IMG/VR virus record: IMGVR_UViG_3300033149_002250
Coordinates: 1,355-65,354 of that record
From: a virus
Taxonomy: Duplodnaviria; Caudoviricetes
Length of the DNA: 64,000 nucleotides
Direction: 5' to 3' (one strand)
Positions 57,276 to 62,361 of the stretch are shown in pieces. The translations under genes were made by a program, and so were the position numbers. The notes beneath the pieces were generated by a model, which made no database searches, was not told the DNA's origin, and saw only the letters and a program-made list of their open reading frames with translations. Within the stretch, counting starts at the first letter, position 1. Each line of letters starts with the position of its first letter.

Positions 57276-58679
57276 TTATAACAGGTCGCACACGATCTGC
57301 TCATCGTCGCTGGCCTCCGCCGTTAGAATCACGACGCCGGTGCTCTTGGCAACCTCGGCCACCTCCTTTCGGTTTACCGGATCGAGCGATTCCCACGCTT
57401 CCTGGGGGACCGCCACCAGTCCGCCCTTGCCCACTTGGGTGGCCGCGATCTCCAAGGCAATGCGCCACCTTTCCCCAGGCGACAACTCTGCAAAGGGCTC
57501 TGCCCCCCGATCCGTGTCGCAGACCAGCACGCCATCCTCGACGCGCAGCTTGGACGTGACCTTCGCCACCCAGTCAGAGAGGATGCTGTCGGTCGCCTTG
57601 GCGGACCCCCGCAGCATTTCTGCCTGACGCAGCCTGTCGTCTGCGGCAGAGAGCAGCTTGTCCGCTACCTCCAGGTTGTGCCGGGCCTCCTCGCGGCTGA
57701 TGGCAAGCTCGTGTTCGCGCTTGGCTCTTTCGACCCGCTCGGTGGCCGCGGCAAGCTCCGCGTCGGTCGGACCTTCCGGGATGTCGCCAAGCACCTGCTC
57801 CAGTTCAGCCATCTCCCTTTCGGCCTGTTCTGCCGCGTGTAGGTCGGACTCAAGCTCAACAAGCCGTGCGCGCTCAGCCTTTAGGCTGGCTTCGAGTTGG
57901 GCGATTCGCTCGCGGCTCTCGACCACCCGTTGGCGAATGTCCACAGCAGCCTTCGAGGTCTGTTTCAGGGAGTCCAATCGTCGGGCTGCCTCCTCTGCTT
58001 GGGCGGCACGCTTTTCGGCCTGCTGTCTTTTGACCTCTAGCTCGCGGCGGGCGAGCAGTGCGTTTGAGAGTTCCTGCTCGGCCTCCTTGGGAGAGGGGCC
58101 GCTCCCGATCTCCTCCGGCAGCCTTTCCTTCACTGCGACGGCTTGGGCTTTGAAGTCGCGGGCCGCCGTCTCGTGCTGCCTGGCCGCGGCCTCTAGCTCC
58201 CGCTTGAGTCTGGCTGCCATCGACACCAGATCGCCGTGCCTGGCAGCAATCGGCAGCAGTTCCTCCAAGTCGTACCCTGGCGGCACTATCGGCTCAAACT
58301 CCTTGGCTTCGCCGGCAGCCCCGGCCAACTGGAGCAGAGCCTTGACTCGCACCCTGTTTGCGGCCGACTCGTCTTTCAGCCCAGGATCGACCAGCTGAGT
58401 GATGTCCAGTTTCCCTTCAAGCGTCTGGACCTCGGCTTCCCCGGTGCGCCGCATGCTGCGGCCGATGGTAAGCCTTACACCCACGCCCTCCACCTTCCCT
58501 TTTTTGGCGTGATCTCGCACTGGTGGCCGACCCCGCTTGGAGACAGCCGCTTCGACTGCCTCCAGCGCATGGCTTTTGCCGACCCCGTTACGGCCCCGCA
58601 ACACGACCACGCCGGCGTCGGGAAGGGGGATCATCAGGTGTTCAACTGGCCCGACGTTTTCTAGGTTGATTTCTCGCAT
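57276..58679 (-). CDS. Rad50/SbcC/SMC-like ABC ATPase with coiled-coil
   Basis: Walker A GRNGVGKS, a long coiled-coil, signature LSPGE and QEAWESLD (degenerate Walker B / D-loop). Confidence 0.8.
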   Translation of the reverse strand: MREINLENVGPVEHLMIPLPDAGVVVLRGRNGVGKSHALEAVEAAVSKRGRPPVRDHAKKGKVEGVGVRLTIGRSMRRTGEAEVQTLEGKLDITQLVDPGLKDESAANRVRVKALLQLAGAAGEAKEFEPIVPPGYDLEELLPIAARHGDLVSMAARLKRELEAAARQHETAARDFKAQAVAVKERLPEEIGSGPSPKEAEQELSNALLARRELEVKRQQAEKRAAQAEEAARRLDSLKQTSKAAVDIRQRVVESRERIAQLEASLKAERARLVELESDLHAAEQAEREMAELEQVLGDIPEGPTDAELAAATERVERAKREHELAISREEARHNLEVADKLLSAADDRLRQAEMLRGSAKATDSILSDWVAKVTSKLRVEDGVLVCDTDRGAEPFAELSPGERWRIALEIAATQVGKGGLVAVPQEAWESLDPVNRKEVAEVAKSTGVVILTAEASDDEQIVCDLL

Positions 58680-58689
58680 CGTTTCTCTC

Positions 58690-58858
58690 CTTGCGCTCGC
58701 TCGGGAGCCAGCCGTGGGGCGCATCCCCGTCGCCGGCCGGCCTCGGTCAACCAAACCTGCGCTCCCCTGGGAGCGTGCCGGTGAGCCCACCTGCCGCACA
58801 CGTCGTGCATCGCCCTTGTGCCTGCGCTCCCCTGGGAGCGTGCCGGTGAGCCCACCTG
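58690..58858 (-). CRISPR. CRISPR-like mini-array: two identical 38-bp repeats, one degenerate terminal repeat and two spacers (27 and 28 bp)
   Basis: Repeat CAGGTGGGCTCACCGGCACGCTCCCAGGGGAGCGCAGG at 58821-58858 and 58756-58793, with a 25/38 degenerate copy at 58690-58727. Internal hairpin CGCTCCC/GGGAGCG; period 65-66 bp. Confidence 0.7.
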
Positions 58859-58859
58859 G

Positions 58860-59040
58860 GCAAGACTTAACTCCTTTCTGTCACTGAGGTTGCGACAGCT
58901 CCGCAGCCCCTCAAGCCGGCACTCCCGGAAGGCCCGGGGGCTGTCCCGTGTGGGAATATCCCCGGCTCTTCGCAGCGTTCCTGGACCGTGCCGCCGCGCT
59001 GGGCATTGCGGCCGTGTCCGGCTTCGGCCTGGCAGTGGCC
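58860..59040 (-). ncRNA. Candidate tracrRNA/scaffold region with an anti-repeat at 58910-58926
   Basis: Minus-strand GGGA-GUGCCGG-CU-UGAG can pair with repeat CUCA-CCGGCAC-GC-UCCC (15 bp, two 2-nt bulges). Boundaries are unknown. Confidence 0.5.
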
Positions 59041-59041
59041 G

Positions 59042-59722
59042 TTATAGCACCTTTTCTAATTCGGCACGAAGCTCATGCAGTACCCGAATTGTTTCGTCGC
59101 TGTCGTCCAGCATGCCAGTACGGACAAGCAGAATCAACTGCCGTGCATGAAAGGTAGCCGGCATTCCCGACAGCTTGGGCACCGCTTCGATCTGCTCGTC
59201 CGTAAGGACCGCGCCAGCCAAATGGTCCAAGCCACGTTTCAGCGGTACTGGCGTGCCGTTCTTCGCCACGGCGACCCTGCCTTCGGCCAGTGCCTTTATG
59301 TCGCTTGGCCGCATACACAGCGCCAAGGCGACGCTCTTGACCGCCACGCGGTACTTCTTCGCCAGGATTAGGCACCGCGTCTTGTCCTGCTTCGTAAGAG
59401 ACCTGCCGTGGGCTGCATTGAGCCGCATCGCATCCAGCAGCAACTCGCGGTCACTGGGATACTCGCGCAGCTCAACGGCAACGATGGGGTTGTCACCAAA
59501 CTCTCGCTTGTAGGCTCGATAGCGATGAAAGCCATCGACAATTCTCTTGCTCCTTGCCTCAGCAATAATCGGCGGCAGGCTGGCGCCCCCGCGGATCGCA
59601 TCGCACAAATTGGCCACGTGCTGACTGTCCACAGTCTGCCTGGGATACAAGTCCCAGTCAAGGACCAGTTCACTCAGCGGCAGCTGGGCAAGCCTTACTT
59701 TCGGCGACGCGATCTTCGCCAT
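59042..59722 (-). CDS. ParB/Srx N-terminal (CTPase-like) domain protein
   Basis: LYPR, LPPII, IVDGFHRYRA (GxxR patch) and LNAAHG.SLT..DK, followed by a possible HTH. Confidence 0.85.
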   Translation of the reverse strand: MAKIASPKVRLAQLPLSELVLDWDLYPRQTVDSQHVANLCDAIRGGASLPPIIAEARSKRIVDGFHRYRAYKREFGDNPIVAVELREYPSDRELLLDAMRLNAAHGRSLTKQDKTRCLILAKKYRVAVKSVALALCMRPSDIKALAEGRVAVAKNGTPVPLKRGLDHLAGAVLTDEQIEAVPKLSGMPATFHARQLILLVRTGMLDDSDETIRVLHELRAELEKVL

Positions 59723-60923
59723 TGGGCAGCTCCTTTCCTGTGATGAAGGACAACCCTTGGCCGTGGGCCTTGTGCTGTAACTGGGTCACGAAGGTGTGCC
59801 AGGGAAAGCCATTCCGGCGGGGCTCGGTGTCCAGCCAGACGATCCCAGCGAATCCGTTACGCTTGGCATAGCCGACCACTTGGGCCGACAATTGGTGTGC
59901 CGCCGTGTCCATGCGGCGGCGGTACTTCTCGGCAAGCGACTTGAACCGGCTGCGCAGCTTGCCGCGGACCTCCATCTTGGCGTCCTCGCTCAGTCGCCGC
60001 AGCCGCCGCTGGTGCTCACGCTGCCACCTGGCAACGTGATCGGCATTGATGGTCCAGAGCTTATTCTGTTTGGCGTTCACCGCCTGTAGCAGACAATCCT
60101 CGCCAGGCATTACGAACAACAAGCCCCGGCTGCCGTCCGGCTGCCCATCACGTGGAAGCCACAGACACATCTTGCAGAGCAACCTGCCGACCTTGCCGAT
60201 ACCTGGCCGGTGGTCGCCGCTGGAGCCCTTTTGTTCATACAAAGCCACCTCGGCCCGCAATGCTTCGCCTGCCAACAGTTTCTCGAAGGCAGCTAGCTGT
60301 CTGCGGTAATCGTGGCCGCCACGCAGCCTCAGATGCACCTGCCGCCCGGCCAGCCGGATACGCACCACCGGCCGCCCCTGTTCGTCCCGCAAAGCCCGCC
60401 AGTCCTTCGCGCGAATGGGAAGCACCGCCCGGTCGTAGCGGAAGTTCGGCACAGACTCGTTGCCGAGCCAGATGACGTTGTACCGCCGTTTGCGCCAGCG
60501 GCCCTCAACTGCGTGCAACACGGCACAAACCGTGGACGGCTCCAGTTCCGGGCACAACTTGCGGGCTTCGGGGTAAAGGTACACAGCCGGGGCCTTCGGC
60601 AGTTTTTCCATTTCCGGTGTGCGCACCACGTCTGCCTTCGCCAGCTGAGTTATGGCCCAGTTGCTCAACCGGACGGTCGCCCGCCAAGCGGCCTTTAGCC
60701 AGTCGCGCAGCTCCGACCACTCGCAGTCCGTCGGCCCCGCCACCGGAATAGTTACGGCCCGCAACACGTAGCGGTCCTTCCAGCAGGTGGCACACATCAC
60801 ATCGCCAGACGGCAGGCGATGCCAGCCGGGCGGCAGCCGCTTCGCCTGGGTCGTTTTGCCGCAGCCCGCGCACACGTACTCACGCTCCTCCGCTGCCATG
60901 GCATTGCCCTCCTGCTCACTCAT
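59670..60923 (-). CDS. Nuclease-dead TnpB/Cas12f-like RNA-guided DNA-binding protein with an N-terminal Zn finger
   Basis: C-terminal HQLSAQVVGYAKRNGFAGIVW and FPWHTFVTQLQHKAHGQGLSF align by eye with the TnpB/Cas12 RuvC region. The RuvC-I Asp position reads LFVMPG; the TNB Zn finger and RuvC-III are absent. Confidence 0.65.
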   Translation of the reverse strand: MSEQEGNAMAAEEREYVCAGCGKTTQAKRLPPGWHRLPSGDVMCATCWKDRYVLRAVTIPVAGPTDCEWSELRDWLKAAWRATVRLSNWAITQLAKADVVRTPEMEKLPKAPAVYLYPEARKLCPELEPSTVCAVLHAVEGRWRKRRYNVIWLGNESVPNFRYDRAVLPIRAKDWRALRDEQGRPVVRIRLAGRQVHLRLRGGHDYRRQLAAFEKLLAGEALRAEVALYEQKGSSGDHRPGIGKVGRLLCKMCLWLPRDGQPDGSRGLLFVMPGEDCLLQAVNAKQNKLWTINADHVARWQREHQRRLRRLSEDAKMEVRGKLRSRFKSLAEKYRRRMDTAAHQLSAQVVGYAKRNGFAGIVWLDTEPRRNGFPWHTFVTQLQHKAHGQGLSFITGKELPNGEDRVAESKACPAAAE

Positions 60924-61521
60924 CGTCCTGCTTCGGGATCGGCTCCCAGTCCGGGCACCAGTCCATGCTTCTCCTGAGTTGGAGCCATCGGTTTATGCAT
61001 AGCTCTGATCCTTCTGGTGTGTCGCGCATGCAGAGCCGGAAGTAAGGGCGCTCGCACCGCACCGCTTTCTCGGCGTCCGGGTCGCCCCACCAATGGGCGC
61101 AAGTGCGGCACTCATTCTCGTGGCCCAAGAGGCCCTGGACCTCCAGGAGAGCACCCCCGTACCCTTTGTCCAGCGGCCACTCGCTCGGCTCCTGCGGACA
61201 GCATGGCACGGCCCTATCGTCGATGTAGGCCGCCGCCAGAGGTTTGCCCTGCCCAGTGTAAACCTCGTCGAAGTAAAACCCATGCTCACGCAGCCATGAT
61301 TCGACTCGCGCCGCAAGTTGCTGCGTCGTCTCGTCGGACTCGCTGGCCTCTGGGTTGCACCGGACGGTGAAGATCACCACGCGGGCCATCTTCGACAATT
61401 TATGCGTGAAGTCAACCGCCCCAGGCAGCGGTTTGCCGATGTGGTCAATGCCACGCCAATGATCGAACTCAGCGAGCACGCCGTCCAGATCAACGCAGAC
61501 GGTTTTTTTCATTTCATCCAT
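60916..61521 (-). CDS. HAD-superfamily phosphatase with a Cys-rich C-terminus
   Basis: VCVDLDGVL (DxD), FTVR, GKP and YIDDRA; start reassigned to MDEMKK. Confidence 0.8.
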   Translation of the reverse strand: MDEMKKTVCVDLDGVLAEFDHWRGIDHIGKPLPGAVDFTHKLSKMARVVIFTVRCNPEASESDETTQQLAARVESWLREHGFYFDEVYTGQGKPLAAAYIDDRAVPCCPQEPSEWPLDKGYGGALLEVQGLLGHENECRTCAHWWGDPDAEKAVRCERPYFRLCMRDTPEGSELCINRWLQLRRSMDWCPDWEPIPKQDDE

Positions 61522-61569
61522 CGGTATTTGCCCCCATGGTGCCGATTGTCTTTCGGGCTCTTCCGTCAA

Positions 61570-61632
61570 TGTTCCACGTGAAACATTCGCCTGTGTTTCA
61601 CGTGAAACGGCACCTGTGTTCCACGTGAAACG
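61570..61632. promoter_or_regulatory. parS: Three tandem parS centromere sites
   Basis: TGTTCCACGTGAAACA (61570-61585), TGTTTCACGTGAAACG (61594-61609) and TGTTCCACGTGAAACG (61617-61632) match the bacterial consensus TGTTNCACGTGAAACA. Confidence 0.9.
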
Positions 61633-61636
61633 GCGA

Positions 61637-62361
61637 CTACGTTTCATCCCTTTCTTCCCAGCTACTGCGGGCTGGCTGCTCCAATCGCTCCAGCGTCGCT
61701 CGTGTCGCTTCAAGCGACCGAAGGACGCTGCCGAGGGTCTGTGTCACGTGGTCTATGGCAGCGACGTAACCGCCCATGTCCATCGCTCTGGCTATCACGC
61801 CTACAGCCTCGCCGATTGGCCCTAGCTCCCACCGGTCCGTAATTCGCACGCCCGAGGCTTGCTCAAACCTACCTACAACCCGCTGTAGATTTCGCAGGCG
61901 GTGCTGGACCTCGTGTAGCTGCATCGCTTTTTGGGCGTCCTCGGCGCACTTGTCTCGCTCCTGTTGGAGCAGCCGCTCGTGTTCCTCCATGGTAATCACA
62001 TTCTCGGCCAGCCGCCTTGCGATTGCTGCCATAAACTCCCAGGATAGCGGCGCTGTCGTCAGTCTCGGTGCGCGTTTGGCAATGCGTGTGCCGCGGCCAT
62101 CGCACTCAATCAGCCCCCACTTCTCTGGCACTTCGGCCGGATGGATAACGCCCTTGGGGGCGGCCACATACCAGTAGAGACAATACTTGAGAATCGCCTC
62201 TGCTTTGGCAGGCTCGGCCAGTTCCTGTTGCCAGTCGGAACGCGACACCTTGATTTCCACGCCATGCCAACCTGCGGCAGGACAACATACGCGGGCCACG
62301 GCCAGCGGCGCTTGAGCATCTGGAAGATTTTTTGTTCCGTCAGTGATATCGCTTTGCTCAC
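61637..62361 (-). pseudogene. MmcB-like PD-(D/E)XK nuclease, frameshifted and apparently internally deleted near 62270
   Basis: The N-terminus (MSKAIS...YVVLPQV) and the core (HGVEIKVSRSDW..EL..P.K..YWYVAAP) are in different frames, and the expected intervening AD-containing segment is missing. Confidence 0.6.

Follow-up and report, generated by a model that had tools for sequence, protein, structure and literature searches.

What does a tailed phage encode between a Cas12f-like gene and a small repeat-spacer array, and could it be a guide RNA? The locus that raises this question lies in IMG/VR virus record IMGVR_UViG_3300033149_002250 (Duplodnaviria; Caudoviricetes), of which we analysed positions 1,355 to 65,354. 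This stretch of 64,000 nucleotides (nt), called the window here, is nearly the entire complete phage record of 65,354 bp, which has direct terminal repeats. On its minus strand, 183 nt separate a ParB-like gene from the array (array 1), and the gene before the ParB-like gene encodes a protein resembling Cas12f (the effector). A prediction made earlier from the letters alone (the original prediction) had placed an anti-repeat in this gap and proposed that it belongs to a trans-activating CRISPR RNA (tracrRNA) or to a natural single-guide RNA, lying between effector and array. We put at roughly 70% the probability that the gap encodes a tracrRNA-like guide-RNA scaffold for a phage-borne, nuclease-dead Cas12f-type effector and that a second module in the same phage feeds this effector, an estimate drawn from sequence comparison and structure prediction. 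Four lines of evidence support the proposal: the Cas12f-like effector, a conserved RNA beside it, a repeat:anti-repeat helix kept in a relative, and a second module with its own cognate anti-repeat.

The effector and its putative scaffold RNA

The effector gene is present in a single copy in the phage, and its product had no match in Pfam or PHROG. A profile of 119 homologues compared with the PDB matched Cas12f (9nzq_A, 6.4e-15), AsCas12f (2e-11) and a 'nuclease-deactivated Cas12f' (9n9c, 2e-10). An AlphaFold2 model of the protein, with a predicted local distance difference test score of 92.5, had AsCas12f as its top Foldseek match (8j12_A, E 6e-18, template modelling score 0.58), followed by other Cas12f, Cas12k and TnpB chains. 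In a hidden Markov model alignment with OsCas12f, the RuvC-I Asp (GVDMG) faces M in the effector and the RuvC-II Glu (MEDL) faces L, and the family consensus has R and D there; we take these two columns of the Cas12f reference (9nzq, OsCas12f) to be the catalytic RuvC motifs. The same alignment showed that the family ends before RuvC-III and the TNB zinc finger, and the effector has neither an intact RuvC D-E-D triad nor that zinc finger. From these features we predict that it is a nuclease-dead Cas12f-type protein. At E values up to 0.001 its family comprises 875 representative clusters, and homologues were found in 2 of 401 sampled Planctomycetota genomes, neither of them close. The Atlas clusters closest to it are mostly viral, and the family thus seems to live mainly in phages.

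The effector gene and the elements that precede and include array 1 are arranged as follows.

59670–60923, minus strand: effector gene, 417 aa, Cas12f-like with an N-terminal zinc ribbon, predicted nuclease-dead from profile and fold
58934–59041, minus strand: scaffold core 1, about 108 nt, starting immediately 3' of the ParB stop codon
59037–59041 with 59025–59029, minus strand: stem 1 of scaffold 1, with loop 59030–59036
59016–59021 with 58980–58986, minus strand: stem 2 of scaffold 1, followed by the AACGC junction and the GGGGAUAU motif
58952–58955 with 58944–58947, minus strand: hairpin of scaffold 1
58960–58965 with 58934–58939, minus strand: closing stem of scaffold 1, with anti-repeat 1 directly after it
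58902–58933, minus strand: anti-repeat 1, 32 nt, directly after the closing stem; duplex with the repeat −36.0 kcal/mol
58859–58901, minus strand: linker from anti-repeat 1 to the first repeat, 43 nt, little conserved; contains a local hairpin and a conserved GAGTTAAG
58690–58858, minus strand: array 1, made of a repeat (58821–58858), a 27-nt spacer (58794–58820), a repeat (58756–58793), a 28-nt spacer (58728–58755) and a degenerate repeat (58690–58727)

The sole close relative of this locus is L003, another phage contig, which has the same gene order and an effector 77–80% identical to that of the window; searches by protein, protein pair, ParB pair and a 24-nt scaffold word returned only the contig behind it. 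Scaffold 1 differs from its L003 counterpart at 4 of 110 columns (96% identity, against 77–80% for the proteins). In distant loci, a recurring series of elements lies 3' of the effector gene: GGCC-loop-GGCC, a long second stem, AACGC, GGGGAUAU, the hairpin and the closing stem. RNAalifold on 12 sequences yielded 18 pairs, 15 of them with a compensatory change, and a covariance model (R1) built from this alignment gave 16 matches, comprising all 12 training sequences and 4 copies outside the training set. R1 finds at least one copy adjoining the effector in every homologous locus with downstream DNA, and it scores scaffold 1 at 101 bits (E 8e-24). In the R1 alignment, which is fitted to the model so that its pairing and covariation counts lean towards it, 94.2% of cells are paired and 17 of the 18 pairs have a compensatory change; none of 500 shuffles equalled this, and slid controls reached at most 55%. 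A covariance model from homologous loci was among the checks that the original prediction had suggested, and what this one recovers is a conserved structured RNA beside homologous effectors.

Array 1 is genuine though tiny. It holds two exact 38-nt copies of the repeat and one 66% copy that runs into the ribosome site of the downstream ATPase gene, and none of 100 shuffles gave two matches. The L003 counterpart has 6–7 repeats (5 near-identical and 1–2 degenerate) with a period of 64–66 nt and unrelated spacers. The distant phage relatives (35–39% identity; L005, L006, L007 and L012) have 4–9 repeats with a period of 71–75 nt, which start 120–200 nt beyond the effector gene, the interval being free of a ParB gene, and 3 of 4 loci from metagenome-assembled genomes have 2–4 repeats. 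The linker hairpin of the window has a parallel at roughly the same site in L003, with its register shifted as judged by eye.

These comparisons also bear on an explanation without any guide RNA, in which the gap is a leader or 5' untranslated region with protein-binding repeats, for example sites for the ParB-like protein, or an attenuator for the downstream ATPase gene. Such an explanation would suit an array that lies between two co-oriented genes, whose degenerate last repeat abuts the ATPase ribosome site and whose repeats contain small palindromes; a second array, described below, likewise abuts an HTH_17 gene. The same structured RNA, however, also stands after the effector gene of phages lacking a ParB or ATPase gene at that place, and in L006 the whole effector-scaffold-array module stands between the genes for the terminase large subunit and the portal protein. 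CRISPR-like repeat-spacer periodicity with unrelated spacers in L003 and other relatives, and the Cas12f fold of the effector, likewise argue against a leader, and we consider it highly improbable.

The probable anti-repeat and a second module

The complementarity on which the original prediction was built is present: the minus strand from 58926 to 58910 (GGGAG TGCCGG ct TGAG) pairs with the repeat centre (CTCA CCGGCA cg CTCCC) through 15 bp in blocks of 5, 6 and 4, with one 2-nt bulge per strand. The distance to the first repeat, given as about 50 nt on the same strand, measured 51 nt before 58858. The extent needed correction. Positions 58910–58926 form only the middle of the anti-repeat, whose full extent is 58902–58933, and the scaffold itself is 58934–59041. 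The best 30-mer duplex with the repeat across the 183-nt gap falls at 58912–58941 (−35.9 kcal/mol). At the fixed position right after the closing stem, 68 of 7878 genomic 32-mers equalled anti-repeat 1, a figure that is somewhat generous because this 32-nt segment was chosen after the best duplex was known. Several of the anti-repeat pairs are G-U, and the pairing is therefore possible only in minus-strand RNA.

Anti-repeat 1 spans almost all of the repeat, leaving out the ~5 nt at its end (GCAGG). This end can pair with CUGC in the scaffold, either in the stem 1 loop or after the AACGC junction (59032–59035 and 58972–58975). The stem 1 loop is complementary to the repeat 3' end in 5 of 7 loci, and the two change together (CUGC:GCAG, CCGC:GCGG and UCGCAA:UUGCGA).

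Pairing that is neither conserved nor covarying in homologues had been named as one outcome that would count against the proposal. Aligning the window with L003 in RNAalifold, we found that 58916–58933 pairs with 58826–58846 of repeat 1 and that the CUGC at 58972–58975 also pairs with the GCAG of the repeat. The anti-repeat:repeat helix retains all of its 16 pairs in L003 (n = 2), with 2 compensatory and 3 wobble changes and none broken. Together with CUGC:GCAG, both phages keep 20 of 20 pairs; variation affects 6 of these, through double changes in 2 (C-G to U-A and G-C to A-U) and through wobble in 4. In a neutral simulation that placed the same numbers of transitions and transversions randomly, a duplex as stable as that of L003 (−32.4 kcal/mol) arose in 47 of 4000 trials, and when the anti-repeat alone was mutated the stability of the L003 duplex was reached in 74 of 4000. 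A competing hairpin within the repeat loses one pair in L003, uncompensated.

A second scaffold and array occur in the same phage, about 53 kb from the effector gene.

5457–5565, minus strand: scaffold core 2, a paralogue of scaffold 1 (R1 match 5446–5573, 67.3 bits, E 2.8e-15; outside the training set)
5425–5456, minus strand: anti-repeat 2; duplex of about 23 pairs with repeat 2, several being G-U (−34.0 kcal/mol)
5413–5424, minus strand: linker before array 2, 12 nt; scaffold 2 to array 2 is 44 nt in all
5217–5412, minus strand: array 2, with four 31-nt repeats (5382–5412, 5313–5343, 5265–5295 and 5217–5247) and spacers of 38, 17 and 17 nt

The closing stem of scaffold 2 differs from that of scaffold 1 by one compensatory pair (G to A with C to T). 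Stem 1, stem 2 and the closing stem with its hairpin all reappear in the minimum free energy (MFE) fold of module 2, where the anti-repeat also pairs with the repeat in cis. The repeat of array 2 differs in sequence from that of array 1, and each module has a cognate anti-repeat in the same register: it sets in directly 3' of the closing stem and reaches ~5–6 nt before the junction of repeat 3' end and spacer. Against the genomic background, 34 of 7878 32-mers equalled anti-repeat 2.

Evidence for and against repeat pairing

Several results weigh against our preferred reading, of a guide-RNA scaffold whose anti-repeat pairs with the repeats of the array. When the whole gap was scanned, its complementarity to the repeat was matched by 90 of 692 genomic 183-nt tiles and by 89 of 300 dinucleotide shuffles, which is the chance level; complementarity alone does not rise above chance in this GC-rich phage genome. 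Co-folding had been proposed as a check with the original prediction, and here the outcome was unfavourable: RNAcofold of the scaffold with a repeat-spacer CRISPR RNA (crRNA) did not choose the helix in the window, and RNAfold of the continuous window transcript picked other pairings. Folding z-scores were unremarkable (−1.51, −0.13 and −1.63). The covariation of the anti-repeat is that of two sequences, with one relative, at which number the shuffle control is powerless (129 of 500), and cognate duplexes beat those swapped between the two phages by just 1–3 kcal/mol. In L016, where a separate stretch follows the closing stem, the signal was weak (39 of 1428 and 479 of 7996). Specificity between the two modules of the window is partial: swapped duplexes reached −25.1 and −31.9 kcal/mol, and the latter, anti-repeat 2 with repeat 1, nearly equals the cognate value. 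As to targets, the spacers of the window and L003 had no matches elsewhere in the window or in the compared loci, 5 spacers and 2 post-array stretches had no target with at most 2 changes in the first 18 nt, and 22-nt parts of both array 1 spacers had no exact match in viral_contigs. Rfam gave nothing at gathering level in the window and noise alone at E up to 10, and in consensus scans neither module had a minus-strand promoter or terminator around it. A −10-like TAGAAT that fails the consensus scan can be seen by eye at 5599–5604 (minus strand), some 35 nt upstream of scaffold 2; the −35 that goes with it (TTGTGC, 16-nt spacer) is poor.

Since the energy checks do not single out the helix in the window, the case for the anti-repeat rests on comparison rather than on energy. 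RNAcofold and RNAfold do use the helix in L003, and partly in module 2. A local 7-bp stem (CAGCCCC/GGGGCUG) that appears in the MFE fold of the window was rejected as a conserved structure, as L003 is without its 3' strand.

Comparison with the distant relatives brings in a different explanation, that the scaffold is real and the 'anti-repeat' is a decayed first repeat (a 'repeat 0') whose complementarity, inherited from a palindromic repeat, would be without function in pairing; the crRNA would then contact the scaffold elsewhere, for example through the stem 1 loop and GCAG. In five loci (L005, L006, L007, L012 and L018) the start of the first repeat corresponds in position to the 3' strand of the window's closing stem, after which the window has the anti-repeat, and the first 6–7 nt of that repeat pair with the strand before GAUAU, forming the closing stem with covariation. 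The repeats of the relatives are hairpins with a 5' arm complementary to the 3' arm; the anti-repeat of the window stands at the position of their 5' arm, and the repeats of the window keep the partner arm only. By eye, the anti-repeat segment also starts and ends somewhat like a repeat, and both the chance-level complementarity of the whole gap and the MFE folds of the window that skip the helix are what a decayed repeat would give. Decay does not readily explain, however, why the substitutions that separate the window from L003 leave all 16 pairs intact, with double changes in 2, an outcome as good in only 47 of 4000 random placements, or why the pairing part of the segment is conserved in L003 and its 3' end is not. 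The unrelated anti-repeat and repeat of module 2 share the same register as well, and we judge a decayed, functionless first repeat to be unlikely.

If the preferred reading of a pairing scaffold is correct, each minus-strand transcript of module 1 would consist of a structured core of ~108 nt, the 32-nt anti-repeat, the 43-nt linker and the array. Because scaffold, anti-repeat and array share a strand and neither a promoter nor a terminator was matched between scaffold and array, one uninterrupted transcript folding into a single guide for spacer 1 is plausible; being co-linear with the array, the scaffold would let the primary transcript fold as a natural single guide for that spacer. The same anti-repeat, whether or not released by processing, would pair in trans with later repeats in the manner of a tracrRNA. 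The loaded effector would then bind complementary DNA without cutting it, and module 2 (5217–5565) would supply the same single effector gene product.

A stricter alternative would have only the RNA that runs from scaffold through anti-repeat, linker and repeat 1 to spacer 1 loaded, in cis, with the later units unused or used without a scaffold. The single-strand layout with no internal promoter or terminator match suits it, as does module 2, where the anti-repeat lies only 12 nt from the first repeat and pairs with it in cis in the MFE fold. Nuclease-dead Cas12f systems with a sigma factor (dCas12f-sigmaE) use single guides, and no tracrRNA was found for them (PMC13472631). In L015, a contig from a metagenome-assembled genome labelled Saccharibacteria, three scaffold copies (3056–3203, 3488–3618 and 4255–4383) lie 3' of one effector gene with no regular array, which may be a multi-single-guide layout. 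Against this, every repeat bears the same complementarity to the anti-repeat, and L003 keeps 5 near-identical and 1–2 degenerate repeats with different spacers, as array 2 keeps four; several kept repeats are hard to explain if the first unit alone works. A guide restricted to the first unit thus appears improbable to us.

Going further than the preferred reading, the transcripts could be living intermediates of the split of an omegaRNA into tracrRNA and crRNA, acting in cis for spacer 1 and in trans for the later ones. Two modules, differing in repeat, anti-repeat and following gene, would load one dead Cas12f, and the phage could then address two sets of DNA targets under separate control; the effector may also work with the ParB-like protein, as RNA-guided recruitment of a ParB-type DNA clamp. 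We offer this fuller picture as speculation and think it doubtful that all of it holds.

Known systems and neighbouring genes

PDB titles among the fold matches of the effector include 8h1j, 8exa and 9jfo ('LaTranC'). In TnpB omegaRNAs and in the TranC intermediates between transposons and CRISPR, scaffold and then guide stand on one transcript, and the idea attached to such systems is that one RNA was divided in function between tracrRNA and crRNA. The present locus resembles them in having an effector of the same fold and scaffold followed by guide on what would be one transcript. Unlike the TnpB omegaRNAs of IS200/IS605 elements, it has several repeat-separated spacers, a predicted dead effector, and no Y1 transposase match in the phage. 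Cas1, sigma-70 region 2 (Sigma70_r2) and the Y1 transposase (Y1_Tnp) had no match anywhere in the phage.

With type V-F (Cas12f) systems in general the locus shares an effector of the Cas12f/TnpB fold (WED-REC-RuvC), an adjacent repeat-spacer array, a conserved structured RNA beside the array, and an anti-repeat complementary to the repeat that has been kept in evolution, this last in a comparison of two phages and with the whole-gap scan at chance. Among published systems, those of the type V-F1 proteins SpCas12f1, AsCas12f and Un1Cas12f1 (PMC12255294) are among the closest. They too have a small effector of the same fold, a helper RNA that adjoins the array, a repeat:anti-repeat stem and a guide 3' of the repeat. 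Their tracrRNA is 156 nt long, against ~140 nt of scaffold plus anti-repeat here, and has a stem 1/pseudoknot core next to the guide, of which the complementarity between the stem 1 loop and GCAG is a candidate counterpart (PMC12255294). Unlike them, the effector of the window has lost the RuvC acids and TNB/RuvC-III, its phage has no cas1, and the scaffold is co-linear with the array and directly upstream of it, which makes a cis single guide possible. The two modules with different repeats for one effector and the ParB-like gene between effector and scaffold are further differences.

The dCas12f-sigmaE systems carry out RNA-guided transcription with single guides, for which the authors propose a collapse of a dual guide back to a single one (Hoffmann et al., PMC13472631). 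They share with the present locus a nuclease-dead Cas12f relative (PDB 9n9c) and an RNA of scaffold plus guide; this phage, in contrast, is without a sigma factor, has an anti-repeat and has kept regular arrays. The effector profile matches 9n9c, over the N-terminal part only, more weakly than it matches the active Cas12f 9nzq (2e-10 against 6e-15), and the effector therefore seems to represent a dead lineage of its own. Inactivated Cas12f/V-U* branches, and a scenario in which the array is minimised and half a repeat is fused to the tracrRNA, are described by Altae-Tran et al. 2023 (PMC10691335). These branches resemble the locus in the loss of RuvC-III with loss of activity, in mini-arrays near the tracrRNA and in the carriage of small type V variants by phages and plasmids. 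Phage single-guide RNAs directed against Cas9 are natural RNAs that join crRNA-like and tracrRNA-like parts, as would be the case here, and are described as hijacking the Cas9 of the host (10.64898/2026.06.01.729453); the phage of the window, unlike theirs, encodes its own effector. Cas12r of Thermus phages was ruled out as the family of the effector, being described as an active nuclease of 564 aa with no tracrRNA (10.64898/2026.04.20.719267). In the literature we found no paper on a phage-borne dead Cas12f with tracrRNA, array and ParB, in a search that covered PMC10691335 up to its supplements, which possibly list the effector family among the V-U groups, and no experimental work on the effector family.

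The locus fits between the states of Cas12f tracrRNA, dCas12f single guide and tracrRNA-repeat fusion. Cas12f tracrRNAs and the single guides of dead Cas12f were already known, and conversion between these forms has been argued mostly from trees. This phage and its relatives present the steps side by side within one protein family: a scaffold fused to the first repeat (L005, L006 and L012), a scaffold with a separate anti-repeat before an array whose repeats have lost that arm (twice in the window), and several scaffold copies without arrays (L015). For this reason a 2-kb construct would allow a direct test of cis against trans pairing. The effector, a putative natural DNA binder of compact size (417 aa) that comes with a defined guide scaffold, also has practical interest.

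On the minus strand, the genes around module 1 follow one another in the order HAD-like (60916–61713), effector, ParB-like, a 360-nt gap and the ATPase. Three genes adjoin the two modules.

59042–59722, minus strand: ParB-like gene between effector and scaffold 1 (PHROG 1033, ParB-like, 5e-10; weak Pfam ParB_N)
57276–58679, minus strand: AAA_23/SbcC-like ATPase gene directly 3' of array 1, with its ATG at 58677–58679 and a GGAGAG ribosome site after the degenerate repeat
5037–5207, minus strand: HTH_17 (excisionase/MerR-type) gene directly 3' of array 2 (Pfam HTH_17, 3e-9)

A ParB-like gene at the junction of effector and scaffold occurs only in the window and in L003 (L003:4006–4689). ParB as a family-wide partner of the effector was rejected, as no such gene was seen next to the effector of either L006 or L012. 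The last repeat of each array runs up to the ribosome site and start codon of the gene that follows (58677–58727 for the ATPase and 5205–5247 for HTH_17). Any 'guide' after the last repeat would consequently coincide with the beginning of the mRNA or DNA of that very gene.

The repeat periods of array 2 are 69, 48 and 48 nt, all multiples of 3, and a mechanical 178-aa frame (5037–5573, minus strand) crosses scaffold 2 and array 2. The HTH_17 match covers residues 123–168 only and fits a TTG start at 5205–5207, by which just the last 56 residues of the 178-aa frame are the real gene. Gene-calling software could annotate a spurious Arg/His-rich repeat protein at 5037–5573. Directly after the HTH_17 gene lies a CsrA-family gene (4810–5019, minus strand; Pfam 4e-15). 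Among the relatives, the phage contig of L005 opens with an 18-nt unit in about 25 tandem copies (L005:1–540), just upstream of the effector gene.

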